A stretch of DNA of 64,000 bases from Dehalococcoidia bacterium (GCA_965262725.1 OZ253555.1:517256-581255); one strand, 5' to 3'; shown: positions 10,222 to 36,452, counted from the first letter of the stretch. Translations and numbers: made by a program. Notes: generated from the sequence alone by a model not told the origin.

Positions 10222-11175
10222 ATGCACAGATGGACCGGTACACTGACCGGACGACCCGGCGTCGACTGCGACAGCCCGGTCGAGGCCGGCTCCCCCGATG
10301 CGAGTGAGGATCGGAGCGTGACCCTGCCGTTCGGCACAGCCAGCGAGCGAGGCCCGGCGACGCGATGGGCCGCCGGAGCAGTGCCCGGGCTCCTGGGCGC
10401 GGTGTTGTTCCTCGCAAGCTGCAGCTCGACCGAGCCGGCCGGCGCGCCGGCACCGGCCCCTCCACGAGCCGCCACCACCACTGCGAGCGCTCAGCCGGCG
10501 ATCGTGCCCGCTCGCGCGCCGTCTGGCGCCGCCCCCCTCGCGAGCCCGCCACCCACCACCGCTGCGCCTGCCCTGTCGCCGACGCCGCAGCCCGGGGCAG
10601 GTTCAGCACCCGGGGGATCGCAGTCGCTCGGGCGGGATGATGGTTCGGCCGTCGAGCCGGGGGCCGGAGGCACCAAGTCCGGCGACGCCCGGCAGGTGAA
10701 GGGCGACTCGGCCTCCACGCCCGCCACGGGGACCGTCTACACCTGGCAGGACGGCGACCGCACCGAGCGGGTGCTGCTGCAGGCCGACCTCGTCCTGCAG
10801 AGCAATGAGGAGAACCGGAACGATGATGAGGTCGTCACCCGCGGCGACACCGCGAGCGTCGTTCGCGCGCAGCCCCGGCATGATGAGGCCGACACCGATC
10901 CCGTCTTCCGCTCGCCGGCCGGCGACCTGATGACGCTGCCCGGCGGGGTGCTGCTCGCCCTCGACGCCGGCTGGGACCAGGCGAGGGTGGACCGCTTCTT
11001 CTCGGACAACGACATCGACCGGAGCCGCGTGGAGGGGCGGGACTTCGCCGTCAACGCCTTCTTCGTGACGACTCAGCCCGGATTCCCCTCGCTCACCCTG
11101 GCCAACGAACTCGCCGCACAGGACGGCGTGTTGATCTCCAGCCCGAACTGGCGAACGGAAGCCGTTCTCCGGTGA
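10222..11175 (+). CDS. Secreted lipoprotein, hypothetical (possible partner of the downstream giant protease)
   Basis: ATG at 10222; lipobox LFLASCSS; Pro/Ala-rich linker; C-terminal globular part; stop overlaps the GTG start of the giant ORF (translational coupling). Confidence 0.55.
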   Translation: MHRWTGTLTGRPGVDCDSPVEAGSPDASEDRSVTLPFGTASERGPATRWAAGAVPGLLGAVLFLASCSSTEPAGAPAPAPPRAATTTASAQPAIVPARAPSGAAPLASPPPTTAAPALSPTPQPGAGSAPGGSQSLGRDDGSAVEPGAGGTKSGDARQVKGDSASTPATGTVYTWQDGDRTERVLLQADLVLQSNEENRNDDEVVTRGDTASVVRAQPRHDEADTDPVFRSPAGDLMTLPGGVLLALDAGWDQARVDRFFSDNDIDRSRVEGRDFAVNAFFVTTQPGFPSLTLANELAAQDGVLISSPNWRTEAVLR

Positions 11176-14100
11176 GCCGTCGGTCGCTGCTCGCGGCCCT
11201 CGCCGCGCTGTGTCTCATGGTCGGGGCGGGGCATGTGGAGGCGAGCACGCCCGGCGCGCCCACGGTCGGCACCATCACCGCCACCACCAACTCGCTCACC
11301 GTGCCGTGGACCGCGCCCTCGGACAATGGTGGTTCGGTGATCGTCGCCTACGACCTGCGCTACATCCGCACCGACGCGACGCCTGCGCGCAAGGCGGACG
11401 ACGCCAACTGGACCGTCGAGGAGGTCTGGACGACGGGCGGCGGCAGCCTCGAGACCGAGGTGAAGGATCTCTCCGACGGCGTGGAGTTCGACGTGCAGGT
11501 GCGCGCCGACAACCAGAACGGCGACATCGGCGAGTGGTCGCAGACCGCCACCGGCACCACCACCGACCACGGCGACAGCACCTCCTCGGCGACATCACTC
11601 ACGCTGGGCGGCTCGGTGATCGGGCGGATCGAGCCCGCAAACGACGCGGACGTGTTCCAGATCGTCCTCACGAGCGCCGCCGACCTCTGGGTCTACGCCG
11701 ACGGCGAGCTCGACTCGGTGGGCGAGCTGCTGGACTCGAGAGGCTCGCTCATCACGCGGGACCCCCGGAACGACCGGCTCGGTCCGCGAGACGGGTTCAG
11801 CCTCCGGCGGGAGGTCGAGTCGGGAACCTACTACGTTCGCGTCATCAGCTACCGGGGCTTCGCCTCAGGCTCGTACACCATCCACGCCCGCGCCGCGATC
11901 GACCCCGGCGACAGCGCGGCCACGGCGACGACCGTCACGCTCGACTCGGTGACGCCCGGACGCATCGACGCCCGGTCGGACGAGGACTACTTCAAGCTGG
12001 TCCTCGGCAGCGCCGCCGAGATCTGGGTCATGGCCGCCGGCGACCTGGACACCTACGGCGAGCTGCTCCGCGAGAACGAGACTGTCCTGGCCGAGAACGA
12101 TGACGGTGGGCTGTCGGGCAACAGCCTGGGATTCGTGCTGAGTCGGGAGCTGGCGGCGGGAACCTACTACATCCGCGTCAGCGGCGTCGGCTTCGAGCCG
12201 ACCGGAACCTACGCGCTGCATGTGCGGACGGTCGTCGATCCCGGCGGCGACGCGGCTACCGCGGCGCCGCTCACCCTCGGCGCGCCCGAAAGCGGCCGAA
12301 TCTCCTCGTCGAGTGACGAGGACTTCTTCAGCCTCACGCTGGCAGAGGACACCTACGTCTTTGTCTACGCCCTGACCCTCGGTAGCGCGCTGCCGCTCAC
12401 GGCGACGGTCCTCGACGGGACGGATACTCCCGTGTCCCTGACGCAGGTCATTCCCCACTCGACCTGGGCCGCCAACGGCAAAGAGGAGGTGAGCGTCTCG
12501 CTCTGGGGGAAGCTGGACGCCGGGACGTACCACATTCAGGTGCGGCGCTCCGGCAGCAGGAACGGGGCCTACCTCCTCCACGCCCTCGCCTCGCCCTACA
12601 ACCAGGCGCTTGCGCGGTGCACCGCTCTGACCACGCCGGAGAGCGACCCCTGGTACGGATGCCAGTGGCACCTCGGCAACACCGGCCAGTTCCCCGGCGG
12701 CGCCGGGCACGACATCAACGTCGAGAGCGTCTGGGCGGGAGGAAACAAGGGCTCGGGCGTGAACATCGCCCTCGTCGACGACGGCCTCCAGAGCGACCAC
12801 GTCGACCTGAGCGCGAACGTCATCGCCGCACGCAACCGCGACTATCAGGGCAACAACAACGTCTTCGATCCGCTCGACACCCACGGCACGGCCGTCGCCG
12901 GCCTCATCGCCGCGCCGGAGAATGACATCGGCGTGCGGGGCGTGGCCCCCGAGGCACGCATCTACGCCTACAACCTGATCACCCACGAGACGTCCACCTC
13001 TGACCATTTGCAAGACGCCATGACGCGCCATCTGCAGGACACGGCCGTCTCCAACAACAGCTGGGGCTTTGTCACGACCGGCCTCCCTCGGGGCTCAGGT
13101 ACGGTCTGGGAGAGTGCGGTCGAGCGGGGAGTGACGGAGGGGTTCGGAGGCAAGGGCATCGTCTACGTCTGGGCAGCCGGCAACGGGCACCCGGAGAACG
13201 GCAACTCCAACTTCGACGGCCTCGCGAACTTCTACGCGGTCACAGCCGCCTGCGCGGTCGGCTACGACGACCGCCGGAGCGCGTACTCCGAGATGGGCGC
13301 CAACCTCTGGATCTGCGCGCCCTCCAACAGCGGTCGCTACGGCCTGCCGCGGATTGCGACGACCCACCAGGTCGACCGCTACCGCGAGGACTTCGGCGGC
13401 ACCTCGGCAGCCACGCCCATCGTCTCGGGCGTGGTTGCCCTCATGCGCGCCGCCAACGCGGACCTCACGTGGCGCGACGTCAAGCTCATCCTCGCCGCGT
13501 CCGCGCGCCAGAACGACTCCGGGAACGGCGGGTGGGAGCAGGGCGCGCTCCGGTACGGCTCGACGACCGACCGCTACTCGTTCAATCACGAGTACGGCTT
13601 CGGCATGGTCGACGCCGCAGCCGCCGTCGCCCTCGCCGACGGCTGGACGATCGTCCCGAAGCTACGGGAATCCGGGGCCGAGTCGGGAGACATCGGACTC
13701 GCGATTCCCGACGCACCCGACGTGGGCGCACCCACCGCCCTGACCGACAGCCTGACGCTCGACTCCCATGTCGCATTCGTCGAGTTCATGGAGATCGAGA
13801 TCACCCTGGAACACAACTGGTTCCGCGATCTCCAGATCGAGCTCGTGTCGCCGGCCGGCGCCGTCTCCGTGCTCTCCGTGCCCGCCCTCTCCGTCCTCCT
13901 GAGGGGGTCGTTCGACGGCAGCCATCGCTTCGGGTCGGCCAGGCACCTGGGCGAGAAGGCCGAGGGAACCTGGACGCTGCGCGTCACGGACACCCTCCAC
14001 GACGATACGGGCACGCTCACGTCGTGGAAGCTCACGGCCTACGGCCACGGGTACGTCCCGATCTCCCCCGACATCGATGAGGTGGTCGAGGGCCCCGGTT

Positions 14101-17100
14101 CCCTCACCATCACCTGGAAGGAGCCCGAGGATGTCGGCGCGTCCGACGTCACCTCCTACGACCTTCGCCACATCCGCGACGACGCGACCGACTTCGCCGA
14201 CGGCCGCTGGCGGGAGCTTCCCGGCGTCGGGAGCCTCACGGATCGGCAGCACACCGTGAGCGGGCTGGACGGGGACACGAAGTACCGGGTCGCCCTCCGG
14301 GCCCGGAACGCCGACGGCATCGGGCCCTGGTCTGACTTCGCCGCCGAGCAGACGGAGCAGGCAGTCCCGGGCAGCCCCCGCTCCGTATCGGTCGCCCCGC
14401 GCGACGCCGGCCTCGCGGTCTCGTGGCGCGTTCCGGGCTACGCCGGCGCCGGCACCCCGACGTCCTACGACGTCCGCTACATCCGGAGCGATGCCACCGA
14501 CAAGGCCGACGCCTTCTGGAGCGTCGTGACCTTCGCCTGGAGGACCGGCGACGGAGACCTCCGCTATGTGATCGGCGGCCTCGACCACACTCTCAGCTAC
14601 GACGTGCAGGTGCTGGCACGCAACGACGCCGACGAGGGAGCGTGGTCCACAACCGCGACGGGGACGCCGGCCCGCCCCAACACCAACAGCCCCGCCGAGT
14701 TCCCGAACAGCGAGAGCGGCCAGCGCAGCGTGATCGAGAACACCCCGACCGGGCGGGACATCGGCGATCCCGTCGCCGCCCGCGACGACGACGGCGACAC
14801 GCTGACGTACTCGCTGACCGCAGGCGCCGCCAACTTCGACATCGACGAGCAGACCGGGCAGCTGCTGACGAAGGTCGCGCTCGACCGCGAGCGGACCGCG
14901 AGCTACCAGGCGACCGTCGCCGTCCACGACGGCAAGGCCGCAGACGGCACGGCGAGCACCGCCACGGACGACACGATCCGCGTGACCATCACCATCGACG
15001 ACGAGGACGAGCCGCCTGTGGTCATGGGCGGCACGACCCCCGTGGTCCGGGAGAACACCACCACCGTCGGCACCTACCGCGCGCGGGATCCCGAGCGTCG
15101 GGCGAACACCTTCACGTGGTCGCTGGGCGGCGACGACGCGAGCGCCTTCGCCCTCAGCGAGAACGGCGTGCTCACCTTCGACCCCGCCCCCGACTTCGAG
15201 GCGAGGGCGGACGCAGACCGCGACAACGCCTACGAGGTCACCATCGAAGCGAACGACGGCAGCCTGACCGGCGACCTGGACGTGCGGGTCAGAGTCGAGG
15301 GCGTCGACGAGCCGCCCGAGATCAGCGGCGACTCGAGTGTCGAGTTCGCGGAGAACGGCTCGACGCGCGTCGGCCGCTACACGGCCAGCGACCCGGAGGG
15401 AGCCGCCGTCTCCTGGCAGACGCTGGCCGGGCCGGAGGCGCGCTACTTCACGTTCGACGCAGGCACCGGCAATCTGAGCTTCGCCGCCACGCCGGACTTT
15501 GAGGCCCGCAGCAGCGCGGTCTACCGGGTCACCGTGCGGGCCGCCGACGAGGGCAATCGGGTCGGCGGCCTGCCCGTGACCGTCACCCTGACCCCCGTCG
15601 ATGAGCCGCCCGAGATCAGCGGGCCGGACGAGGTCACCCTCAACGAGGTCATCAACCCGACCCCGGGGCAGGTGGTGGCCGTCGGGAGTTACACCCGGCG
15701 CGATCCCGAGGGCTCCTCCACCAACTGGGGGTCGGTCGGGAGCGCCACGGTGCTCACCGGCGCCGACGCACGCGAGTTCGACTTCGACCAGCGCAGCGGC
15801 AGGCTCACCTTCCGGGCGCCGCCCGACTCCGAGAGCGGGAGCGCGTCGTACCAGGTCACGCTGAACGCCAACGACGGCGTGCTGAACGGCAGGCTCGAGG
15901 TGACCGTCCACGTCGCCAACCTCGACGAGCCCGGCGCGGTGACCCTCGACCGGAGAACCCCCGTCATCAACCGCACGGTCACGGCCACGCTTGAGGATGC
16001 CGACGGCGTGGTCAGCAAGAACTGGCAGTGGCAGCGCTCGCCGGGCCGCACGGGCCCCTGGTCGGATATCGACAGCGCCACCTCGCGCAGCTACACGCCC
16101 GCCCCCGACGACCGCGGCGCCTACCTGCGCGCGAGCGCCGAGTACGAGGACGGCCACGGCGCGGGCAAGACGGCGCCGCCGGGCGTCTCGGAGTTCCCGG
16201 CCGCCAACGTCCGCACCTCGAACACGCCGCCGGTCCTCCCGGACGCGGTCGACGACATCTCCCTCCTGGAGAACACCCCGCGGGGGCGCACCGTCGGCAC
16301 CGTGCGCGCCACCGACGCGGAGAACGACCCGCTGACCTACTCGCTCACCGGGGCAAGCGAGTTCGTGATCGGCCGCACGACCGGCCAGATCCGGGTCGCC
16401 CCCGGCGCGGTCTTCGACTTCGACTCCGGCCGGATCAGCTACTCTCTCATGGTCACCGCCAGGGACATCTTCGACGCCGCCGACTACGTCGACGTCACCA
16501 TCACCCTCACCGGCGTGGACGAGCCGCCGGTGGCGGAGCCCGACGCCTCTTCGACGAACGAGGACGAGCCGGTCGTCATCGACGTGCTCTCGAACGACAG
16601 CGATCCGGAGGCCGCCGACCTGGCCGTCACGGCGGTGAGCCGGCCCGGCAGCGGCACGGCGACCGCAGGTCCCGGCAGCGGGGAGATCACCTACACCCCC
16701 CGCGCCGACTACCACGGCGCCGACGGCTTCCGCTACACGGTCTCCGACGGCGCCCTGCGGGACGAGGGCACGGTCTCCGTCACCATCCGGCCGGTGAACG
16801 ACCCCCCGGAGTTCCCGCCGTCCGCGGCCGAGCGCTCCGTCGCCGAGTCCGCCGGCGCCGGCGAGCCGGTCGGCGCGCCCGTCGCGGCGACGGACCGCGA
16901 CGGCGACGACCCGACCTACCGCCTCTCGGGCTCGGCGGACTTCGAGATCGCGGAGGACTCCGGCCAGATCACCGTGGGGGCCGGCACGGCCTTCGACGTG
17001 TCGATTCAGGAGACCTACACGGTGACCGTCGACGCGAGCGATGGGAACGGCGGCCGGGCGAGCGTCGAGGTCACCATCACCGTGACGACGCAGCCGGTCG

Positions 17101-18780
17101 GGCCGACGATCGTGTTCGGGGGTGGTGGGGGCGGCGGCCCCTCGGGCCCGACGCCCAGCGAGATCGAGTTCGAGTGGAACGTCACCCGCGACATCGAGGA
17201 GCTCGACGGCGGCCACGATGTCCCCACCGGCTCCTGGTCCGACGGCGCGACGCTCTGGCTCGCCGAGAACGGCGACGGCGCCGACGACGCGGTCTACGCC
17301 TACGACCTCGCCACGGGCGAACGCGTCGAGGAGCTCGAGTTCGAGCTCGACGACGCCAACCTCGCGCCCCGTGGGGTCTGGTCCGACCTCCGCACCATCT
17401 GGATCTCCGACAGCGGCAAGGACAAGCTCTTCGCACACGACCTCGCAAGCGGCGAGCGCCTCCCCGACTCCGATCTCGCACTGCACCCCGACAACGACGA
17501 CCCGCGCGGCATCTGGTCGAACGGCCCGACGCTGTGGGTGCTCGATGGCCGCGACAACGCCCTCTACGGCTACGACCTGGAGAGCGGCGAGCTGCTCGCG
17601 GGGTACGCCCTGGACGACGCCAACGACGACCCGCACGGCATCTGGTCCGACGGCACCTCCGTCTGGGTCTCCGATGACGTCGCCAAGCGCCTCTTCGCCT
17701 ACCGCCTGCCCTCGCTCGAGGAGGAGGACACGAGCGCGGACGAGGAAGAGGACCTCGAGCTCGCGCGCGTGCGCGATGAGGAGTTCTGGAGGCTGAGCCG
17801 GGCCAGCAACAACAGCCCGCGCGGTCTCTGGTCCGACGGCGACGTGATGTACGTCGCCGACTCCAGCGACGGCAGGGTCTACAGCTACAACATGCCGGAC
17901 GGGATCGACGCCCGGCTGGTATCGCTTGCGCTCAGCGATGTCGAGATCGGCGAGTTCTCACCCGGCCAGACGGAATACGAGGGCGTCGCGAGTGAGGGCG
18001 CTACCGAGACGACGGTCGAGGCGGCCGCGGCGCGCCGCACGGCGGTCGCCATCGACCCCCCCGACGCGGACGAGGTCGCCGACGGCCACCAGGTGGCGCT
18101 GGACGGACTCGATGAGATCACGGTGACCGTGACCTCTCCCGACGAGAGCCGCAGGGGGGTCTACCTCGTGCGCATCGGCGCTGCGGCCGAGGCGGAGCGG
18201 TCGGCGGCGCCCTGCCTGAGCGGCGCCGTGGCGGTGAGCTTCAGCATCCTCATCTACGAGGGGGGCGGCATCGGCGACCTGGTCGGCTGCGCGGAGAGCC
18301 GCCACGTCACGGCGCTCTACGCGCTCGAGGGCGGCGCCTACGTGCCCTACATCCTCGGGGCGCCCCAGTTCGTGAACAGGCCCTTCATCGAGCTGTACGC
18401 GGAGGGCGTCCCGGCCGTGACGCTCTTCATCGCCGGAAGCGACGGACCGGCCACGGCCGACCCGGCGAGCGACGGCGGCGCGGCGCAGTCCTGGCCGGAG
18501 TGCCTGCGCGGCGAGATCGCCACGGGCTTCAGCCTCGTGCTCTACGAGGGCGGGAGCGTCGAGGAGGTCGGCGCCGTGCGTGCAGGGCCGCGGCGTTACG
18601 GCGCTCTACGCGCTCGAGGGCGGCGTCTACGCGGCGTACATCCTCGGGGCGCCCGAGTTCGTGAATCGGCCGTTCTTCGAGCTGTTCGCGGACGGCCTGG
18701 CCCCGATGACACCGCTGATCGCCAAGAGCGAGGGGCCGCCGGCCGCGGTCGCGGATCGCGGGGACGTGCCCGACAACTGA
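11172..18780 (+). CDS. Giant secreted subtilisin-like (S8) protease with FN3, 4x PPC, P-domain, many cadherin-like / VCBS-like repeats, WSDG propeller-like repeats and tandem C-terminal Cys domain; apparent frameshift near 18570-18590
   Basis: Signal peptide MSRRSLLAALAALCLMVGAGHVEA. S8 triad motifs DDGLQSDH, HGTAVAGLIAA, GTSAATPIVSGVVALM; P-domain DLQIELVSPAGAVSVL. The ORF-track 2839-aa frame becomes Arg-rich junk after ~18580, while ORF 18580..18780 (+1 frame) continues the homologous domain (VTALYALEGGVYAAYILGAPEFVNRPFFELF) and stops at 18780. Confidence 0.8.
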
Positions 18781-18791
18781 GAAGGAGCGAC

Positions 18792-18828
18792 CGGCTGCCG
18801 ACGCCGGACGCCGGACGGTTCGGCAGCA
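18792..18828 (+). terminator. GC-rich hairpin just after the giant-protein stop (putative intrinsic terminator, no clear T-tract)
   Basis: GGCTGCCGA...TCGGCAGC inverted repeat about 12 nt after the stop at 18780. Confidence 0.3.
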
Positions 18829-19174
18829 GGCGGGACTCTCAGAGGCGCTCGCGAAGAGGGTCCGGTCAGGTTGTGCCGGGGAGCCGCTGCCCCGCTGACT
18901 CCGGGCTCCAGGCAACCGGGAATCGTGTGTCGTGGCGTCGCTCCGCGCCGTGCGCCGTCACAGCTGGGGCGATCACTGGGTGCACATCGGGCGCGAGCAA
19001 ATCCGCCATCATCACCTCTTCGCGCTTGACACGCATGCGCGGAGGCTGGCGATGCGGGGAGATGTGCGCGCGGCCCGGTGACCTCGCCCGGCGGCACGAC
19101 GACAGGAGGATCGATCGTAGACTCGACACCTTGCTCTGGTGGATTGAGCCGCCGCGCCGGGGAAGGAACGACTG

Positions 19175-20191
19175 GTGTCCGCGTCCGCGCCGCCGTCTCC
19201 CTCGCCGACGCCGTCGGCATCTGCCCCCGCTCCGCTCTGGCGGCGGGCGCCCGTGCTGGCGCTCGTCGTGGCGCGGCGCGCGACCGCGAACTTCATCAGT
19301 GTCGGCGCCGCGCAGATCGCGGCGGGCATCTCCTACTACGCTCTCATCTCGCTGTTCCCGCTGGCGTTGCTGGCGTTCTCGGCGTTCGGCCTCGTGCTCC
19401 GCGACGAAGAGCTGCAGCAGCGCGTGCTCGACGGGATCGTCGCGGGGATCCCGGTGGAGGCGCCGATCGTCGAGGAGGCCCTCGCCGCGCTCGCGAGCGG
19501 CGGAGCCACCATCGGGCTGGTGGCGCTGGTCGCCACGATATGGACGGGGAGCGCCCTCGCCGCCGCGCTGCGCAGGGCACTCAACACCATCTTCGAGGTG
19601 GACCGGGCCCGCCCGTTCGTGCAGGGCAAGCTCGTCGACGTCACGATCGCGCCGGTGCTCGGGTTCCTGCTGCTCGTGTCGCTCGTGCTGACGACGGGGT
19701 GGCGTCTCGCGCAGGCCGAGGCGGTGGACTTCGGGATCCTGCGGGAGCAGGGGTTCGTCTGGGAGCTCGGCGCAGTCGGAATCACCGGACTGATCAGCTT
19801 CCTCGCGTTTCTCTTCCTCTACTGGCTGCTCCCGAACTCCTCGCTGAGGCCGCGCTACCTCTGGCCCGGGGCGTTGCTCACCGCGGTGGGGTTCGAGGCG
19901 GTCAAGTTCGGGTTTGCGGCCTACCTGGCGCACTTCGGCAACTACGACGTGATCTACGGCTCGCTCGGAGGCGTCATCGCGATGCTGGTCTGGGTCTTCG
20001 TCAGCGTCAACATCATGCTCCTTGGCGCCGCGGTCTCAGCGGAGATCCCGCGAGCGTTGCGGGGGGAGGATCGTCCCGGAGACGAGAGCGCGCGCGATGT
20101 GCGCTGGCGGGAGTCGGCGCTCCTGCTGCTGCGCGGGCTGTTCTTCGGACCAGACGAGTCGACACCGGAGCCGCGGAGCCGGGGCCGCTGA
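19175..20191 (+). CDS. YihY/BrkB-family inner membrane protein
   Basis: ISYYALISLFPLALL motif with multiple TM helices, typical of the YihY / virulence factor BrkB family. Confidence 0.8.
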   Translation: MSASAPPSPSPTPSASAPAPLWRRAPVLALVVARRATANFISVGAAQIAAGISYYALISLFPLALLAFSAFGLVLRDEELQQRVLDGIVAGIPVEAPIVEEALAALASGGATIGLVALVATIWTGSALAAALRRALNTIFEVDRARPFVQGKLVDVTIAPVLGFLLLVSLVLTTGWRLAQAEAVDFGILREQGFVWELGAVGITGLISFLAFLFLYWLLPNSSLRPRYLWPGALLTAVGFEAVKFGFAAYLAHFGNYDVIYGSLGGVIAMLVWVFVSVNIMLLGAAVSAEIPRALRGEDRPGDESARDVRWRESALLLLRGLFFGPDESTPEPRSRGR

Positions 20192-20245: not shown

Positions 20246-22235
20246 CTATGCGAGAGTGAGTACCGTGGCCGGATTGTCCACAGTTATCGCTTGAATCACG
20301 TCTTCCGAGAATCCCTTGCGTCGCATTCTGGGAACGATGTTCTCGAGGATGTGGCCGTGTGCGTCCGGAAGTCGAAGGGGTGGTGACGTGATGACGTGAC
20401 CGGTCCGGAGACATGCTCGTTGCTGCCAGCCGGTGAGAGTCCGGCACGGGTAACTGTCAGGAGGCCCGTTAGCAGGTCGGCGGCGTGGACGGGAAACGGT
20501 CTGCGTCGAAGCCCGACGTCAAGAGCCCTATGAGGGGGAGCAAACGTGCGGTCCGCAGCATGACGCGAAGTCTGCCGCGCCGTGAGACTCGCCTGTCTAT
20601 TGACAGGACCAAGGAGGAGCCGAGCCCGGGTGGTCAGGGCGAAGGCCATGGACGAGGTGAAGATCCTGGAATGCAGCCTCAAGAAACCTCCCGGCGTATG
20701 GGACGTGGAACGTACGGAAGGTAGCGACGGGAACCGGAGAAGCCCTCCCCGGCCCGGCACCCTGTGAGAGGGCGTCGGAGCGAGGCGTCCTATAACCGGT
20801 CAGAGCCGGGAAGTGGACAGCCAGCCGGAAGGGTGGCGGAGGGGGTCGTAGTACCGCTGGAGCCGGACGGACAACATAACCGCCGGTGATGGGAAGGACC
20901 CCTACTTTGTCCGTGCATGTTGCTGGGGGTGTGGACTGGTGAGTGCCCCTCGGGGCTAGCAACCACTTGGTAGGGTTCGAGGCTCTCCGCACATGCTGTA
21001 CCGGCTGGCCAAGGCACGACCCACGTTGTGGGGAGCGCTGCATGCCATCTGGTGAAGGGCATCGGTGAGCCGGATGAGGGAGAACCTCACGTCCGGTTCG
21101 ATGTGGCAGGGGCTGGAGACGGACGCTGCTATGGCCGTGGAGTTGGGCACCACCGGGAAACCGGCTTGGAACTGATGCGCCACCGCCTACGGCTCGCACC
21201 GCGCCAGCCCCTGACCCTACAGCCGTGTCCTCCGTATCTGACAAGTCGGTGCTTCATGCAAATGTCCTGACCGATAACGATTCTATCGGAATAGCCGGCG
21301 TCGGCGATGTACCGAATGAAGCCCAGCCTCTGGGCGTCGCTCGGCATATCGATGTCGGCGAGTGGGTAGTACGATCCTTCATTGCCGAACAGGTCCCATT
21401 CAAGGTAACAGCCTGACGCGGCAATACTCAGAAGCGTGTCGAACTCAAACACGGTTCGATCCAGATGTCCCACGATCACCCGGGACAGATCCGCGCCGCC
21501 GTATTCGAGCACCTCCAGGATCTCCAACGGTGCATCCGGATGCCGCCCTGGATGGATCAATATCGCCGCACCCGTGTCTCTCTGCGCGATTGCCGCCGCC
21601 GACAGGGACTTGCGCTCGTTTGGCGCCAGGGGCCACGTGCAGCCAATCTCCCCGATGATGCCCGCCTTGATGCCGCTGCCTCCAACGCCGTCACAGATAT
21701 CGCCGGTAATCTCCCGCGCCAGATCCTCCGCGGCCCGCTCATCCATATCTTCTGGATGGACGGCTGCGACGTAGAAGCCCGCACCCATGATGATGTGGAC
21801 GCCCGATGCACGCGATATGTGGGCCAGCGCATCCGGCGAGCGTCCCATTCCCATCGAGGTGGCGTCGACAATGGCGCCGCCTCCGGCTTCGCTGAACTTG
21901 CTGACTTCTCCTATCGTTGTGTCCACATCCATCAACTGAAGGTTGGAGCGGTTGCTGTAGTAGTTGCGCCGTATCCATCCGATGTTGTCCAGGGCTATGG
22001 GCGCATCCGCCAGCTCCTGCGACGGCGAGTCCCGGGCGGGGCGATACATGAACGAGAAGTCGATATAGAGGTGTTCATGGGTCGTCGTGGCACCCAGTTC
22101 GGACGGGGGTACAGGGCCCAGCACGGTCTGGACGAGACCCCGATTTCGTTCTGATCCCACGTCCCCACTCCCTGTAGTATCGTCGCCGGAAAGGTAGCAC
22201 GGCCCGTTTGGGGGCGTACAACCGGCGTCCGACAA
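20246..22235 (-). pseudogene. Phosphotriesterase-homology (PTE/PHP, amidohydrolase TIM-barrel) gene interrupted by an antisense group II intron
   Basis: ORF 21129..22235 (HEHL...GQDICMKHRLVRYGGHG) then runs into intron-derived sequence. The missing C-terminus (YGHILENIVPRMRRKGFSEDVIQAITVDNPATVLTLA*) is encoded at 20246-20358 beyond the intron. Confidence 0.7.
20359..21220 (+). mobile_element. ORF-less group II intron, copy A1 (862 bp)
   Basis: 5' GTGCG...3' ...CTAC; the same unit recurs at 32245-33106 and 33107-33968; about 90% identical to domains I-III and V-VI of the ORF-containing intron at 31129-34926. Confidence 0.8.
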
Positions 22236-29194: not shown

Positions 29195-30589
29195 GTGTAT
29201 ATGACTACCTCCACCCCGACCATCCCCCGCGTGCCCCCGCCGGGTCCCTCACTTTCCGAGCACCCCGACGGGGTGTCCGCGTTCCGGGCGCTCGGGATTC
29301 CCGCCGAGCTCGACGCGGTGCTCAAGCGGCAGGGCATCACCGAGCCCTTCCCGATCCAGTCGCTCGCGATTGCCGACGCGCTCGCGGGCCGCGACGTCTC
29401 GGGCAGGGCCGAGACCGGCTCCGGCAAGACGCTGGCGTTCGGCCTGCCGCTGGTCGTTCGCACGCGGCGCGCGAGGCCCCGGAGGCCGCACGCGCTGGTG
29501 CTGGTGCCGACGCGCGAGCTCGCCAACCAGGTCGCGGATGAACTCACACCGTTCGCCGCCCAGCGCGGCCTGTGGCTGACTTCGATCTACGGCGGCGTCT
29601 CGATGCTGCGGCAGGTGAAAGCCCTGCGCTCCGGCGTCGATATCGTGATCGCGACTCCCGGCCGCCTCAACGACCTGCTCGAACAGCGCGAGCTGTCGGT
29701 CGCCGATGTCGGGTTCGTGGTGATCGATGAGGCCGACCAGATGGCCGACATGGGGTTCCTCCCCCAGGTCGAGCGCATCCTGGAGCAGGTCGAGGAGAAG
29801 CCGCAGACGCTGCTCTTCTCCGCGACCCTCGACGGCGCGGTGGGCGAACTCGTCCGCCGCTACCAGCAGGATCCCGTCTATCACGAGGTCCCGCAGACCG
29901 CCGGGTATATCGACGCCCTGGAGCAGCGCTTCGTCGGCGTGCGCCACGAGGATCGCCTGGGCGTCACGGCATCGATCTGCGCCGGCGCGGCGCGGGCGCT
30001 CGTGTTTGTGAGCACGACCAGGGGAGCCGACCGACTCGTGAAGCAGCTGCAGGACGAGGGCCTCGGGGCCGTCGCCATCCACGGCCGCATCTCGCAGAAC
30101 AAGCGGGAGCGGGCGCTGGCTGCCTTCAGCAGGGGCACGACGCCGGTGCTGGTTGCCACGAACGTGGCGGCCCGCGGGATCCACGTCGACTCAGTCGACG
30201 TGGTCGTGCACTACGACCTGCCCGAGGACGCGAAGGTCTACGAGCATCGTTCCGGCAGGACCGCCCGCGCCGGCGACCGCGGGCTCGTCGTGACGCTGGC
30301 CCTTCCCGAGAACGACCGGGACATCACGCGCCTCATCCAGGAGCTGGGGGCCGACCAGGATGTCGTGGCGATGCGCCCCGACGACCCGCGCCTGGCGGAT
30401 CTCGCAGCCTGGGAACCGCCGGCGGCGACCGTCGGGCGCGTCTCCGGAGCGTATGATATGAGGCCGCGACGCGGCCCCGTGGCGCAACGAGGCGGCCGCG
30501 GACGAAGCGCCGGCCCGCGACCGTACGCGGTCGCCGGCCGCAGCCGGCCGCCTCAGCGGCGCCGCCTCGCTCGCCCGAGAGGGGCCTGA
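29195..30589 (+). CDS. DEAD-box ATP-dependent RNA helicase
   Basis: Q-motif, Walker A AETGSGKT, VIDEADQM, SAT, HRSGRTARAG; Arg/Gly-rich C-terminal tail. Confidence 0.9.
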   Translation: MYMTTSTPTIPRVPPPGPSLSEHPDGVSAFRALGIPAELDAVLKRQGITEPFPIQSLAIADALAGRDVSGRAETGSGKTLAFGLPLVVRTRRARPRRPHALVLVPTRELANQVADELTPFAAQRGLWLTSIYGGVSMLRQVKALRSGVDIVIATPGRLNDLLEQRELSVADVGFVVIDEADQMADMGFLPQVERILEQVEEKPQTLLFSATLDGAVGELVRRYQQDPVYHEVPQTAGYIDALEQRFVGVRHEDRLGVTASICAGAARALVFVSTTRGADRLVKQLQDEGLGAVAIHGRISQNKRERALAAFSRGTTPVLVATNVAARGIHVDSVDVVVHYDLPEDAKVYEHRSGRTARAGDRGLVVTLALPENDRDITRLIQELGADQDVVAMRPDDPRLADLAAWEPPAATVGRVSGAYDMRPRRGPVAQRGGRGRSAGPRPYAVAGRSRPPQRRRLARPRGA

Positions 30590-30639
30590 GGCCGCCACCC
30601 GGCGCGGGGGCGCGACCGTCCGCGACGAGGGGACGCGTA

Positions 30640-30867
30640 ATGGCTCGACGACCCAGGTATTCGTTTGAACGCTCCCAGCGGGATCGCGCGAAGGTCGCGA
30701 AGCGCGAGGCGAAGCGAGCCGCACGCGAGGCCCGCAGGGGCGGCGTCGGGACGGATGATGCTGAGGCGGGCGGCGAGCCTTCGGAATCGCCGGCGCCGGA
30801 CGGGATCCCCACACCGGGGCCTGCCGCGAGCGGGCCCCCGGAGGGCGCCGACCGGCTCTCGGACTGA
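30640..30867 (+). CDS. Small basic hypothetical protein
   Basis: 75 aa, Lys/Arg-rich N-terminus, located just after the helicase; weak support. Confidence 0.3.
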   Translation: MARRPRYSFERSQRDRAKVAKREAKRAAREARRGGVGTDDAEAGGEPSESPAPDGIPTPGPAASGPPEGADRLSD

Positions 30868-31679
30868 GGCCGCCCCCGTTGGTGGACCGTTCCGTCGGGC
30901 GTCGGGCTTCGGCCGCGCCCTCGCCCGCCCGGCCTACTGGCTGATCAGCGGCTGCCCGTGGTCGCCGCCTGCCGGATTTCGCCTCGCCTGCCGGCGCTCG
31001 GACTCACATGCCCGCGCGAGAAGGTTGAAGGAGCGTCCGCCCGGGTGTGCTGTGGCGCTCCGCGGGGCGCTCTAGCTACTGCCTAGTGTCCTGAATTGGA
31101 AATGCGATTGAGATATCCGGTGAGGTTGGTGTGTCCCGAAGTCGAAGGGCGGGTGACGTGATGACGTAACCGGTCTGGAGACATGCTCGTCGTTGCCAGC
31201 CGGTGCGAGTCCGGCACGGGTAACTGTCAGGAGGCCCGTTAGCAGGTCGGCGGCGCGGACGGGAAACGGTCCACGTCGAAGCCCGACGTCAAGAGCCCTA
31301 TCAGGGGGAGCAACCAAGCGGTCCGCAGCATCAAGCGAAGCCTGCCGCGTCGTTAACGGATAGTGGAGGAGCCGAGCCCGGCAATTCAGGGCGAAGGCCA
31401 TGGACGAGGTGAAGATCCTGAATGCGCGTTGCGCTGCAGCCTCAAGGAACCTCCCGGCGTAAGGGGCGTGGAACGTTTGGAAGGTAGCGACGGGAACGGG
31501 AGAAGCCCTCCCCGGCCCGGCACCCTGCGAGATGGTGTCGGAGCGAGGTGCCCTATAACCGGTCAAAGCCGGGAAGTGGGCAGCTAGCCGGAAGGGTGAC
31601 GGAGGGGGTCGTAGTACCGCTTGAGCCGGACGGACAACACAACCGCCGGTGATGGGAAGGACCCCTGCTTTGCTCACGC

Positions 31680-34600
31680 GTGGGGAGTAGGGATGAATCG
31701 GTGAGTGCCCAAGCGGCTAACTCCATCCAAGACAAGGTCCGAACACTACAACGCACGCTTTACCGGGCGGCCAAGGCCGACCCCAATAGACGCTTTCATG
31801 CGCTCTACGACAAGGTTTATCGCAGAGACATTCTGGAGCGCGCGTGGGAGCAGGTGCGTCGCAATCGCGGCGCAGCCGGTATCGACGGCGTCACGCTCGC
31901 CGAGGTCGAGCGCTACGGCGTGGAGCGCCTGCTGGATGAACTGGCCACGGAACTGAAGGAGGGAAGCTACCGGGTGCAGCCGAGCCGCCGGGTCTGGATA
32001 CCCAAGCCCGGTCGGTCGGAAGAGCGCCCGCTCTCGATTCCTTCGGTCCGCGACCGCATCGTGCAGGCGTCGCTGAAGCTCGTGACGGAGCCGGTCTTCG
32101 AGGCCGACTTCCTGCCATGCAGCTTCGGCTTCCGCCCGAAGCGTTCGGCCCATGACGCCCTGCAGGTCCTCATTGACGAGGCGTGGCGGGGCAGGCGGTG
32201 GGTAGTGGAGACGGACATCGCCTCGTGTTTCGAGTCGATACCGCGTGCGTCCGGAAGTCGAAGGGGTGGTGACGTGATGACGTGACCGGTCCGGAGACAT
32301 GCTCGTTGCTGCCAGCCGGTGAGAGTCCGGCACGGGTAACTGTCAGGAGGCCCGTTAGCAGGTCGGCGGCGTGGACGGGAAACGGTCTGCGTCGAAGCCC
32401 GACGTCAAGAGCCCTATGAGGGGGAGCAAACGTGCGGTCCGCAGCATGACGCGAAGTCTGCCGCGCCGTGAGACTCGCCTGTCTATTGACAGGACCAAGG
32501 AGGAGCCGAGCCCGGGTGGTCAGGGCGAAGGCCATGGACGAGGTGAAGATCCTGGAATGCAGCCTCAAGAAACCTCCCGGCGTATGGGACGTGGAACGTA
32601 CGGAAGGTAGCGACGGGAACCGGAGAAGCCCTCCCCGGCCCGGCACCCTGTGAGAGGGCGTCGGAGCGAGGCGTCCTATAACCGGTCAGAGCCGGGAAGT
32701 GGACAGCCAGCCGGAAGGGTGGCGGAGGGGGTCGTAGTACCGCTGGAGCCGGACGGACAACATAACCGCCGGTGATGGGAAGGACCCCTACTTTGTCCGT
32801 GCATGTTGCTGGGGGTGTGGACTGGTGAGTGCCCCTCGGGGCTAGCAACCACTTGGTAGGGTTCGAGGCTCTCCGCACATGCTGTACCGGCTGGCCAAGG
32901 CACGACCCACGTTGTGGGGAGCGCTGCATGCCATCTGGTGAAGGGCATCGGTGAGCCGGATGAGGGAGAACCTCACGTCCGGTTCGATGTGGCAGGGGCT
33001 GGAGACGGACGCTGCTATGGCCGTGGAGTTGGGCACCACCGGGAAACCGGCTTGGAACTGATGCGCCACCGCCTACGGCTCGCACCGCGCCAGCCCCTGA
33101 CCCTACGTGCGTCCGGAAGTCGAAGGGGTGGTGACGTGATGACGTGACCGGTCCGGAGACATGCTCGTTGCTGCCAGCCGGTGAGAGTCCGGCACGGGTA
33201 ACTGTCAGGAGGCCCGTTAGCAGGTCGGCGGCGTGGACGGGAAACGGTCTGCGTCGAAGCCCGACGTCAAGAGCCCTATGAGGGGGAGCAAACGTGCGGT
33301 CCGCAGCATGACGCGAAGTCTGCCGCGCCGTGAGACTCGCCTGTCTATTGACAGGACCAAGGAGGAGCCGAGCCCGGGTGGTCAGGGCGAAGGCCATGGA
33401 CGAGGTGAAGATCCTGGAATGCAGCCTCAAGAAACCTCCCGGCGTATGGGACGTGGAACGTACGGAAGGTAGCGACGGGAACCGGAGAAGCCCTCCCCGG
33501 CCCGGCACCCTGTGAGAGGGCGTCGGAGCGAGGCGTCCTATAACCGGTCAGAGCCGGGAAGTGGACAGCCAGCCGGAAGGGTGGCGGAGGGGGTCGTAGT
33601 ACCGCTGGAGCCGGACGGACAACATAACCGCCGGTGATGGGAAGGACCCCTACTTTGTCCGTGCATGTTGCTGGGGGTGTGGACTGGTGAGTGCCCCTCG
33701 GGGCTAGCAACCACTTGGTAGGGTTCGAGGCTCTCCGCACATGCTGTACCGGCTGGCCAAGGCACGACCCACGTTGTGGGGAGCGCTGCATGCCATCTGG
33801 TGAAGGGCATCGGTGAGCCGGATGAGGGAGAACCTCACGTCCGGTTCGATGTGGCAGGGGCTGGAGACGGACGCTGCTATGGCCGTGGAGTTGGGCACCA
33901 CCGGGAAACCGGCTTGGAACTGATGCGCCACCGCCTACGGCTCGCACCGCGCCAGCCCCTGACCCTACACGACCGTCTGATGACGGCCGTCGAGGAACGG
34001 ATATGCGACCGCAATCTCCTGAAGCTGGTACGGGCGATGCTGCGTGCCGGTGTGATGGAGTCGGGGGTCGTGCAGCACAGCGCGACGGGTACGCCGCAGG
34101 GCGGGGTGATGTCCCCGCTGCTGGCCAATGTCTACCTGCACCGGTTGGACCGGGACTGGGAGGCGAAGGGTGATGGCGTGCTGGTGCGCTATGCGGATGA
34201 CCTCGTGGTGCTCTGCCGGAGCCGGGAGGAAGCGGAGCGGGCGTTGGCCCTGCTGCGTGACCTGCTGGGTGAGCTCGGACTGGAGCTCAAGGCGGAGAAG
34301 ACGCGCATCGTGCACCTGCGGGAGGGAGGCGAGGGGCTGGAGTTCCTCGGCTTCGAGCATCGCTGGGTACGTGCGAAGCGCAACAAGAATATCCAGTTCC
34401 TCGCACGCTGGCCCTCACGGCGAGCGATGCAGCGGGCGCGGGACCGCATCCGTGAAATCACGGCGCGGTTGCGTCTGCTGCTGAGTCCCCGGCAGGTCGT
34501 GGAGGAAGTCAATCGCTACCTCCGCGGCTGGATGAGCTACTTCCGCTACGGCAACTCGGCGAGGGCGTTCGACGTCCTGCACTGGTTTGCCATGTGGAGA

Positions 34601-34762
34601 CTCAAACTCTGGCTGGGGAAGCGGTTGCGTTGGCGGCGACGCCATCGCGGGCACCCGTTTCCCGTCGCCGACCGTCTGGGGCTCATCTCGCTAGCTGGAC
34701 AGCGCGTCGTGGCACCACGGCCATATCGACCGTGGCGGGGCACCCCGCATGCCGCCCGGTGA
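31680..34762 (+). CDS. Group II intron-encoded reverse transcriptase/maturase (split: 31680-32244 and 33969-34762)
   Basis: N-terminal part ends ...TDIASCFESIP; C-terminal part resumes HDRLMTAVEE... with YADDLVVL and an X/maturase domain; no HNH endonuclease domain; the junction codon CAC is split (c | ac). Confidence 0.8.
32245..33106 (+). mobile_element. ORF-less group II intron, copy A2
   Basis: GTGCG...CTAC, 862 bp, essentially identical to A1. Confidence 0.85.
33107..33968 (+). mobile_element. ORF-less group II intron, copy A3 (head-to-tail with A2)
   Basis: Begins immediately after the CTAC of A2 and ends before ACGACCGTC of the RT ORF. Confidence 0.85.
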
Positions 34763-34922
34763 AGGGCATCGGTGAGCCGGATGAGGGAAAACCTCACGTC
34801 CGGTTCGAGGCGGCAGGGGCTGGAGACGGACGATGCTACGGCTGTGGAGATGGGCGCCACCGGGAAACCGGCCTGGCAATATGCGCCACCGCCTACGGCT
34901 CGCACCGCGCCAGCCCCTGACC

Positions 34923-36023
34923 CTACTCAAGGATCTGGTCCGCGGACTTGTGCCAGATGAAGGGCCTCGGATTCTCGTTCCAGCTGGCGACCCACATCTC
35001 CACTGAGCGGATCAGATCAGGGACGCTATGGTGCGTGCCGCGCCGGAGCCACTTGCTGGTGAGCTCTGCAAACCAGCGCTCCACGAGGTTCATCCAGGAG
35101 CTGTAGGTCGGCGTGAAATGGAAGGTGAAGCGGGGATGGCGCTGGAGCCAGCGCTGGATGGCGGGCGTGCGGTGCGTGGAGACGTTGTCGAGCACGACAT
35201 GCACCGCCAGCTCATGGGGAACGCTTTGGTCGATGAGGGCGAGGAACTGCTGGAACTCCCGAGCCCGGTGCCGGGGGGTCATCTCCGTGATCACGCATCC
35301 CGAGGCGACATCGAGCGCCGCGTAGAGGTTCGTCGTGCCGTGACGGATGTAGTCGTGCGTCTGGCGGGCGGGGACGCCGGGCATCATCGGCACCGTCGGC
35401 GCGGTGCGGTCGAGTGCCTGGATCTGGGTCTTCTCGTCCACGCACAGCACAACCGCCGCGTCGGGCGGGTTGAGATAGAGCCCGGCCACGTCGCGCACCT
35501 TGTCGATGAACTGCGGGTCGGGCGACAGCTTGAAGCTCTCCACGAGGTGCGGCTTCAGGCCGAAGGCGCGCCAGATCCTGAAGATCGCCGACTGCGACAT
35601 CCCGACCGCGGCTGCCATCGATCGGGTCGACCAGTGCGTCGCGTTGGGAGGCTGCTCCTCCAGCGTCGTGACGATCACCGCTTCCACCTGTGCATCGGCG
35701 ATCGTGCGCGGCGCCCCGGGGCGCGGCTCATCCTGTAGCCCATCGAGCCGCCCCTGCGCAAAGCGCCGGCGCCACTTGCCGACGGTGACCGGATGGCAAT
35801 CGAGCGCCGCGGCGATCGCTTTATTCGATGTCCCCTCGGCCGCTGCCAGGACGATGCGACAGCGCAGCGCCAGCGCCTGGGCCGATGTCGGCCGGCGCGC
35901 CCACCGCTCCAGCGTCTCACGCTCCTCGTCGCTCAGGACGATCGCGACCGTCGGCCGTCCGATTCGGGTGCTCATGACACTCCAGAGTCTGCCCCATGGG
36001 GCAAAACCCCGCTGTGCCACCAT
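34923..36023 (-). CDS. IS630-family DDE transposase
   Basis: HTH N-terminus and DDE core (VLCVDEKTQIQAL...HVVLDNVSTHRT...SSWMNLVERWF); the last codon and stop are supplied by the intron B 3' end, so the native C-terminus is replaced. Confidence 0.9.
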   Translation of the reverse strand: MVAQRGFAPWGRLWSVMSTRIGRPTVAIVLSDEERETLERWARRPTSAQALALRCRIVLAAAEGTSNKAIAAALDCHPVTVGKWRRRFAQGRLDGLQDEPRPGAPRTIADAQVEAVIVTTLEEQPPNATHWSTRSMAAAVGMSQSAIFRIWRAFGLKPHLVESFKLSPDPQFIDKVRDVAGLYLNPPDAAVVLCVDEKTQIQALDRTAPTVPMMPGVPARQTHDYIRHGTTNLYAALDVASGCVITEMTPRHRAREFQQFLALIDQSVPHELAVHVVLDNVSTHRTPAIQRWLQRHPRFTFHFTPTYSSWMNLVERWFAELTSKWLRRGTHHSVPDLIRSVEMWVASWNENPRPFIWHKSADQILE

Positions 36024-36056
36024 ACCCGTTATCTGTCGCTATTACGAATCAGGACA

Positions 36057-36452
36057 CTAGGCGGCCGCGATCTCCTTCGGCCACATCGAGGCGGGAACGA
36101 TGCGTGAGAACAGCCGCACCGCATCCTCGTCGCGGCGGTTCGGAGAGAGCATGTACGTGGCACGCCCCTTACCCGAGCGCGACAGCGCGAACCTGCCGTT
36201 GGCGGTGCGCCCGATGGCGATGAAGCCGCTCGCATACATCCCGCCGATCGCGATGACCCCGTTGGCGTTGCCGCCCCCGATCGCGGTGATGCCGGTCGCG
36301 TTGAGGCCCCCGAATGACACAAGCCCGATCGCGTTGCCGCTGCTGATCGCGATGACACCGATGGCATTCACCGCGCTGATCGCGACAAGCCCGATGGCGT
36401 TGACCGCGCTGATGGCCAGGATTCCGATGGCGTTGACCGTGTCTATCGACAT
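36057..36452 (-). CDS. Hypothetical protein made of 11-residue repeats (NAIGxxAISxx), possible beta-solenoid
   Basis: At least eight consecutive 11-mers (NAIGILAISAV NAIGLVAISAV NAIGVIAISSG ...); the TAG stop coincides with the IS630 TA target. Confidence 0.55.
   Translation of the reverse strand: MSIDTVNAIGILAISAVNAIGLVAISAVNAIGVIAISSGNAIGLVSFGGLNATGITAIGGGNANGVIAIGGMYASGFIAIGRTANGRFALSRSGKGRATYMLSPNRRDEDAVRLFSRIVPASMWPKEIAAA

Follow-up and report, generated by a model that had tools for sequence, protein, structure and literature searches.

Introns that lie within introns, and with them inside an insertion sequence (IS), raise the question of whether such nesting serves a regulatory purpose or records a succession of selfish insertions. 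We address this question for a locus in a 64,000-nucleotide stretch of DNA from a Dehalococcoidia bacterium (GCA_965262725.1, OZ253555.1:517256-581255), hereafter the window, in whose coordinates positions are given unless another contig is named. Here, an IS of the IS630 family carries a group II intron, termed B, whose gene for the intron-encoded protein (IEP), a reverse transcriptase (RT)/maturase, is interrupted by two identical copies, A1 and A2, of a group II intron A that has no open reading frame (ORF). Successive selfish insertions, of the IS630, of B, of A and, by wobble re-insertion, of a second A, very probably account for the locus. The evidence consists of the anatomy of the locus, an allele of B in which the site of A is empty, the covariation of exon-binding sites (EBS) with intron-binding sites (IBS), four identical copies of A at three sites, and the ribozyme signatures of both introns. 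The parts of the locus are the following.

31084-31085, no strand: left TA of the target-site duplication, read from the sequence; the partner TA is at 36058-36059.
31086-36057, minus strand: IS630-family insertion sequence, from terminal inverted repeats and transposase profile matches.
34927-36023, minus strand: main part of the IS630 transposase ORF, from ORF reading, profile search and tblastn.
31086-31128, minus strand: last 14 transposase codons (NLTGYLNRISNSGH), cut off by intron B, from the rejoined ORF.
31129-32244, plus strand: 5' part of intron B, with domains I-III, the start of domain IV and the N-terminal half of the IEP, from an RF02003 match and identity to contig L029.
32245-33106, plus strand: intron A1, a group II intron of 862 bp without ORF, GTGCG...CCCTAC, from an RF02003 match and its sequence ends.
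33107-33968, plus strand: intron A2, head-to-tail behind A1, 862 bp and identical to it.
33969-34926, plus strand: 3' part of intron B, with the C-terminal half of the IEP, domain V (D5) and a long domain VI (D6), from an RF00029 match, the fold and identity to L029.

The IS630 measures 4972 bp in all, its passengers counted, and 1174 bp once intron B is subtracted. Its imperfect terminal inverted repeats (31086-31107 and 36036-36057; left end GTGTCCTGAATTGGAAATGCGA, right end as reverse complement GTGTCCTGATTCGTAATAGCGA) agree at 9/9 terminal bases and at about 18/22 overall, and a TA stands on both flanks. The transposase, which may start at either of two ATG codons (36023 or 35975), scores 271.7 bits against the NCBIfam model for IS630 (NF033545, cut-off 100) and 84 bits against DDE_3 (PF13358), and helix-turn-helix domains of Pfam are matched as well. 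Its main part is ended by a TAG straddling the 3' boundary of intron B (34923-34925); when 31128 is joined to 34927, the ORF continues to ...ADQILDNLTGYLNRISNSGH and its stop codon, which tblastn confirmed. The GC content is 67% in the IS630, 66% in intron B and 65% in intron A, against 71% in the whole window. Abutting the right IS end, an ORF on the minus strand (36057-36452), with its stop codon at the IS boundary, encodes a repetitive peptide of 131 amino acids of the NAIG(I/L/V)xAIS type.

Intron B occupies 31129-34926 on the plus strand (GTGTG...CCCTAC), antisense to the transposase and 15 codons ahead of its stop. Its IEP starts with a GTG at 31701, as judged by homology to the related protein P0001, or alternatively with a GTG at 31680, and stops at 34760-34762; D5 (34774-34806) and the branch-point A (34920) follow. 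A1 (EBS2 32472-32477, EBS1 32516-32520, EBS3 U 32585, D5 32953-32985, branch-point A 33100) and A2 (D5 33815-33847, branch-point A 33962) are 100% identical and meet exactly at ...CCCTAC/GTGCG.... Together they break the RT ORF of B at 32244/33969 (flanks ...TTCGAGTCGATACCGC and ACGACCGT...), between FESIP and HDRLM. This is the middle of the RT domain, so that no active IEP can come from this copy of B unless both inner introns are removed. Their removal in silico (1724 bp) creates the junction ...TCG ATA CCG C/AC GAC CGT..., translated as ...DIASCFESIPHDRLM..., within a continuous ORF of 445-452 amino acids. The restored IEP scores 408.6 bits against TIGR04416 (group II RT/maturase; cut-off 300, model positions 2-352 of 353), matches RVT_1 and GIIM and contains the YADD motif; no endonuclease domain was detected in it by profile search. 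The layout is that of a twintron, in which the inner introns lie on the same strand as the outer one and their exact removal restores the outer intron and its ORF. The original prediction had described an IS630 with terminal inverted repeats, TA flanks and a DDE transposase, a full-length intron B antisense in the 3' end of the transposase gene, and two head-to-tail 862-bp introns without ORF at FESIP/HDRLM, oriented in sense so that precise removal would restore the IEP ORF. All of this is borne out by the repeats, the profile matches and the junctions, which could be read exactly.

An allele of B with an empty A site is provided by contig L029 of an ENA metagenome assembly. A protein search with the restored IEP returned P0001, an uninterrupted protein of 445 amino acids with 99% identity that is encoded on this contig. 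The B of L029 is 99.86% identical to that of the window along the full 2074 nucleotides (98.7-99.9% in the 5' part, 99.7% in the 3' part), and the alignment crosses the junction of the window sequence from which A had been excised. There, B also lies within an IS630, at the same position as in the window; this IS630 has an internal deletion of about 507 bp. A second B-type copy (L030), 96-97% identical and truncated at its 3' end, is found at an unrelated site. B either homes to this conserved IS630 sequence or travels with the IS. For the most part, the two IS630 elements agree at 96-99% identity, and the 43 terminal nucleotides beyond B diverge (about 15/43 differ between window 31086-31128 and L029 5385-5428), as do the C-termini of the transposases (...DNLTGYLNRISNSGH in the window, ...DNLAG in L029). 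This divergence of the IS end could stem from recombination or from B having homed separately into two subtypes of the IS.

Both introns carry the signatures of group II ribozymes. RF02003 (group II D1-D4) is matched at 102.8 bits by A1, A2 and a further copy, A3, and at 95.3 bits by B (31197-31333), against a gathering score of 49, and the intron ends fit GUGYG / AY (GTGCG...CTAC in A, GTGTG...CTAC in B). D5 reads GAGCCGGAUGAGGGAGAACCUCACGUCCGGUUC, one base differing between A and B, and the D5 of B exceeds the RF00029 gathering score of 40 with 41.5 bits. [quoted passage not shown] In D6, the basal helix CAGGGGCUGG/CCAGCCCCUG precedes a lone bulged A, behind which come another two pairs and CUAC; this would place the bulged branch-point A 7 nucleotides from the 3' splice site. 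The D5/D6 fold has a z-score of -4.9 in A and -4.3 in B. Whether A and B fold into domains V and VI had been put forward as a check, and both do, bulged A included; with GUGYG / AY ends in either intron, the 862-bp units are not plain direct repeats.

Copies of A are also found outside the nested array. The window holds a third one, which lies in a gene unrelated to mobile introns in the following arrangement.

20359-21220, plus strand: intron A3, third identical copy, 100% identical to A1/A2, with an RF02003 match at 20427-20563.
21221-22235 plus 20247-20358, minus strand: phosphotriesterase-family gene hosting A3 (PF02126).

A3 is antisense in the 3' end of this gene and severs its last 38 codons; without A3, the gene matches PF02126 at 272 bits (model positions 3-297 of 298). 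A fourth identical copy stands alone on contig L031. Four 100% identical copies are therefore present at three unrelated sites, namely the RT ORF of B, the phosphotriesterase gene and L031, and all three sites have an IBS1-like sequence and A at position +1. The presence of A1 and A2 had been recognized from the start, A3 had been overlooked. Judged from these sequences, A is a mobile, non-autonomous element, and the several identical copies, taken together with the empty-site allele, indicate that its activity is recent.

A resembles B at 86-92% identity by segment in domains I-III and at about 89-92% in D5-D6, which replaces the single value of about 90% estimated initially. It keeps approximately the first 120 nucleotides of domain IV, including the IEP start region, and is without about 1.2 kb of ORF. 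A hairpin of domain I (D1) that is missing from B is shared by A and a C-type lineage (L032/L033, about 79% identical), and A is hence related to B without having arisen from this B copy by direct deletion. The original prediction, which had regarded A as an ORF-less derivative of its parent B, was correct in that the domain IV ORF is gone; "parent" is an approximation at best, given a difference of about 9-14% in the ribozyme and a D1 hairpin of the other lineage. A scan of genome contigs for the D5 sequence gave 28 loci (Chloroflexota, Acidimicrobiia, archaea and others) none of which came close to A or B, with about 70% identity at best. An intact C-type IEP, P0020, is 78% identical to the B IEP, and the contig bearing it may belong to the same genome as the window.

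How A and B recognize their targets was read from covariation, by which the EBS sites were placed in A, two B-types, the C-type and distant relatives from the D5-pattern scan; the minimum-free-energy fold of the whole of domain I is untrustworthy and was left out of the placement of EBS loops. The pairs of EBS1 and IBS1, and the positions in B and at the homing site of A, are as follows.

Intron A: EBS1 GUGGU; IBS1 ACCGC, GCCGU, GCCAC.
Intron B: EBS1 CAAUU; IBS1 GGUUG.
L030 B-type: EBS1 GCGAU; IBS1 (C)UCGC.
C-type: EBS1 AUCCU; IBS1 GGGAU.
L013 intron: EBS1 CGUGU; IBS1 GCACG.
L020 intron: EBS1 CGAGA; IBS1 UCUCG.
L023 intron: EBS1 AUCGG; IBS1 CCGAU.
31357-31362, 31382-31386 and 31462, plus strand: EBS2, EBS1 and EBS3 of intron B, by covariation.
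32231-32244, plus strand: A homing site in the RT ORF, with IBS2 CGAGTC (32231-32236), linker GAT and IBS1 ACCGC (32240-32244); IBS3 is the A at 33969.

EBS1 is the pentamer directly 5' of the conserved CAGGGCGAAGGCC. It forms 5/5 pairs with IBS1 in A (at all three sites), B, the C-type in L033, L013, L020 and L023, and 4/5 pairs in L030, L032 and L016, covarying over at least eight specificities. EBS2 lies about 40 nucleotides upstream of EBS1, with a linker of 3-4 nucleotides between IBS2 and IBS1, and pairs over 6 bp in A (GACUCG/CGAGUC, positions -14 to -9) and B (CGGAUA/UAUCCG) and over 5 bp in the C-type (GAGUC/GACUC). For EBS3, the variable base N of CCGGCGUA[N]GGG was identified, which in A is position 341 (window 32585). 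Across seven introns it covaries with +1 in three states, U/A (A), A/U (B and C-type) and G/C (L013, L016 and L023); the C at +1 in L016 and L023 depends on placing their 3' ends by D6 analogy.

Another candidate for EBS1, together with delta, was an 11-nucleotide loop at A positions 183-195, which offers eight contiguous complementary bases over the insertion site. It was rejected because it does not covary with the targets: the loop is identical in the window B and the L030 B-type despite their different 5' exons, and its candidate partner for +1 is C in the C-type, whose +1 is U.

The 32-nucleotide homing site of A is identical and empty in L029, L030, L032 and L033, and its conservation makes it a target for A in every related autonomous intron. 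Over these 32 nucleotides (window 32220-32244 plus 33969-33976), the DNA of the B-type IEP gene is the same as that of the C-type IEP genes (L032 5511-5549, L033 2811-2849), while identity between the two types is only about 78% elsewhere in the gene. Strong constraint or gene conversion may be the cause.

From these observations we infer an order of events, together with mobilization of A in trans and splicing of A1, A2 and B. An IS630-family element would first have entered a TA dinucleotide. B would then have retrohomed near the 3' end of the transposase gene, on the strand antisense to it; without an endonuclease domain, B would recognize this target through IIB-like EBS1, EBS2 and EBS3. 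In a third step, A, having lost about 1.2 kb of domain IV, would have retrohomed into the FESIPH codons of the RT ORF of B, at a target composed of IBS2 CGAGUC, a linker of 3 nucleotides, IBS1 ACCGC and +1 A. Finally, a second A would have entered the occupied site directly upstream of the first, yielding an exact head-to-tail dimer. The resident A leaves the IBS2-linker-IBS1 segment intact and the new +1 would be the G of GUGCG, which could form a wobble pair with the U of EBS3. Upstream re-insertion accordingly offers pairing at 6/6 positions of IBS2 and 5/5 of IBS1 with a U-G wobble at +1, compared to 1/6 of IBS2 and 4/5 of IBS1 for downstream re-insertion. A would have to be mobilized, and probably spliced too, by a related IEP acting in trans. 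This B copy would make IEP only once both inner introns have left the transcript, most likely A1 first, which would recreate the normal 5' junction for A2.

Several points weigh against this account. The A1-A2 pair is seen in one assembly only, with the proteins P0121 and P0154 both going back to a single 3,674,403-bp contig, and since the two copies are identical, the order of their insertion cannot be read from the sequence. A search of the 64-kb window found no intact B-type IEP. The D5 of A, at 37.5 bits, falls just below the RF00029 gathering score of 40. Finally, three of the introns in the EBS3 comparison had their 3' ends set by analogy to D6 and not independently.

The identity of A1 and A2, and hence their unreadable order, would be equally expected if the dimer had formed in a single step or by another route, for which downstream insertion, template switching by the RT and microhomology-mediated tandem duplication come into question. 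Downstream insertion could draw on the 3' end of A, where CCUAC pairs with EBS1 at 4/5 positions, and its junction would retain the canonical +1 A; yet this site is almost devoid of IBS2, whereas IBS2 and IBS1 are both perfect upstream. Group II RTs are known to switch templates, but the non-templated nucleotides that usually accompany such switches are absent at the junction. [quoted passage not shown] Taken together, we consider these routes unlikely.

The tandem might also be an artefact of assembly or polishing, with truly one copy of A in the RT ORF of B. The pair has no second public assembly to support it, several perfectly identical 862-bp repeats per genome are a known hazard for assemblers, and a scan of JGI metagenomes for the junction CTGACCCTACGTGYGTCC gave five matches, all of them by chance in unrelated AT-rich sequence, and no other tandem of this family. 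However, the junction leads exactly from an intron 3' end to a 5' end with no base gained or lost, a respect for boundaries that would not be expected of an artefact, and it is precisely the product of the documented EBS3(U)-G wobble re-insertion. In addition, the 3.67-Mb source contig suggests long reads that would easily span 1.7 kb. An artefact is thus a very improbable explanation.

That the twintron is a regulatory device, with the inner introns gating translation of the B IEP such that IEP requires prior IEP (positive feedback or copy-number control), is likewise a very improbable proposal: although the insertion lies mid RT domain, where no downstream start would rescue an active IEP without splicing (unlike in Thermosynechococcus), and the inner introns are in sense with exact excision restoring the frame, the arrangement lacks conservation (the site is empty in four related intron copies and interrupted in one assembly only), A has also entered a host gene in antisense, from whose transcript it cannot be spliced and in which it can only do harm, as a parasite would, and B is antisense in the IS with no evident promoter. 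A scan of 30500-36300 for promoters and terminators found nothing and is uninformative at this GC content. Gating of the B maturase by A is speculative, and the simpler and more parsimonious interpretation is hyper-parasitism, i.e. a non-autonomous intron homing to a site conserved among the RT genes of the intron family it belongs to. We attach equally little credence to the tandem introns acting as a brake imposed by a hyper-parasite, whereby the B IEP would be made only after two successive IEP-dependent splicings. If such a brake existed, it would constitute a threshold or bistable switch coupling B and its IS630 carrier to the IEP dose from other copies, and a regulatory relationship among bacterial retroelements resembling that of long and short interspersed elements (LINE/SINE).

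Successive selfish insertion, the account we favor, is set in a family in which nested introns are frequent among the related loci that were fetched, and the nesting itself is less surprising for this reason. In L032 (4418-8415; ENA ERZ26694896 ctg118011), the C-type intron shares about 79% identity with A and B and encodes an intact IEP of 442 amino acids; it carries a 1.9-kb RF02005-class intron with its own RT of 499 amino acids inside domain V and thus forms a second twintron, possibly in the genome that the window comes from. The same C-type intron is uninterrupted in L033. In L013 (around 1452) and L020 (around 5076; Acidimicrobiia metagenome-assembled genome (MAG) CAWJCQ010000005.1), an intron of the same family lies within the D5 of another, in the context ...GCGGGAGAACCGCACG/intron/CACGGTTCG..., and EBS1 CGUGU matches that D5 at 5/5 positions, which suggests that the D5 of other group II introns is the homing target of this lineage. 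L023 (2274-3500) and L005 (Acidimicrobiales MAG MFD09222.bin.3.40) have two RF02003 matches about 346 nucleotides apart followed by one D5; here, an intron (GTGTGTCC...) appears to be inserted in domain I of another.

Elsewhere in the window, a single ORF of 2839 amino acids (11172-19691, plus strand) contains internal direct DNA repeats, for example 17198-17708 and 18288-18754. Its C-terminal third resembles low-complexity read-through and overlaps the ORF at 19175-20191. The DNA upstream of it harbors repeat families whose period is about 300 bp, and direct repeats lie at 1074-1670 and 2744-4358.

The locus brings together four behaviors of group II introns within 5 kb: homing into an IS, loss of the ORF, homing of the derivative into related RT genes, and, probably, tandem re-insertion by wobble pairing. 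The A ribozyme, a B-type IEP and a target of 15 nucleotides offer a defined system to test the splicing order of tandem introns and trans-mobilization. These high-GC environmental genomes are, in addition, rich in nested introns, from which gene callers yield spurious or truncated RT proteins.

The closest precedent for the inner layers is provided by the twintrons of Thermosynechococcus elongatus, in which the ORF-less TeI3 lies inside the ORF-containing TeI4 (Mohr et al. 2010, PMC2882425). There as here, an ORF-less relative is inserted in sense in the IEP ORF of a related intron, and the inner copies are identical; the outer T. elongatus introns have diverged. The ORF-less intron of T. elongatus is mobilized in trans by a related IEP, and introns of this organism also home into insertion sequences (PMC2882425). 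In contrast to the locus described here, the T. elongatus inner intron lies between the first two ATGs and IEP is still made from the second (PMC2882425), whereas insertion between FESIP and HDRLM makes splicing obligatory. The inner introns here moreover form a tandem pair, and the host is a high-GC organism (71% GC) and not a cyanobacterium. Trichodesmium provides a bacterial twintron that is spliced sequentially (PMC4649490). In Methanosarcina acetivorans (Dai and Zimmerly 2003, as summarized in PMC4424553), related introns are the recurrent, site-specific homing targets of introns both with and without an RT gene; host coding exons are not involved, and nesting provides a perpetual homing site. 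Those arrays are nested up to five levels and are not described in this summary as head-to-tail dimers at one site (PMC4424553), which sets them apart from the pair in B.

For the outer layer, RmInt1 of Sinorhizobium meliloti offers a parallel, as it homes into ISRm2011-2 of the IS630-Tc1 family (PMC4615759). Like RmInt1 as portrayed there, B has an IEP without endonuclease domain, EBS1, EBS2 and EBS3 of the IIB type and a homing site in an IS630-family element. B belongs to a different intron lineage, however, and its site precedes the transposase stop by 15 codons, on the opposite strand.

The original prediction had called tandem identical group II introns rare. For natural genomes this is a reasonable statement; how such tandems arise has, however, already been published (PMC4615759, PMC12584367), and the sequence features that this mechanism requires are all found at the present locus. 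RmInt2 gave head-to-tail copies, by the same wobble-enabled route, in a homing assay (PMC4615759). For EcKTE56.groEL, tandems made up 22% of ORF-deleted compared to 4% of full-length integrants, and about 3% of intron-containing reads had two full-length tandem copies, which its authors explain by an EBS3(U)-IBS3(G) wobble (PMC12584367). The pair in B shares with these cases the U at EBS3, the exact junction of a 3' end with GUGCG and intact IBS2 and IBS1 upstream (PMC4615759, PMC12584367). Most of the RmInt2 and EcKTE56.groEL events come from mobility assays on plasmids or chromosomes, and their targets were the inverted repeat of an IS or the stop codon of groEL, whereas the dimer reported here is fixed in a natural assembly, inside the RT gene of another intron. 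Each layer of the locus, including the tandem pair, matches described behavior of group II introns and no new mechanism is revealed; what the locus adds is a tandem integration, as seen in the laboratory, that has become fixed in nature.

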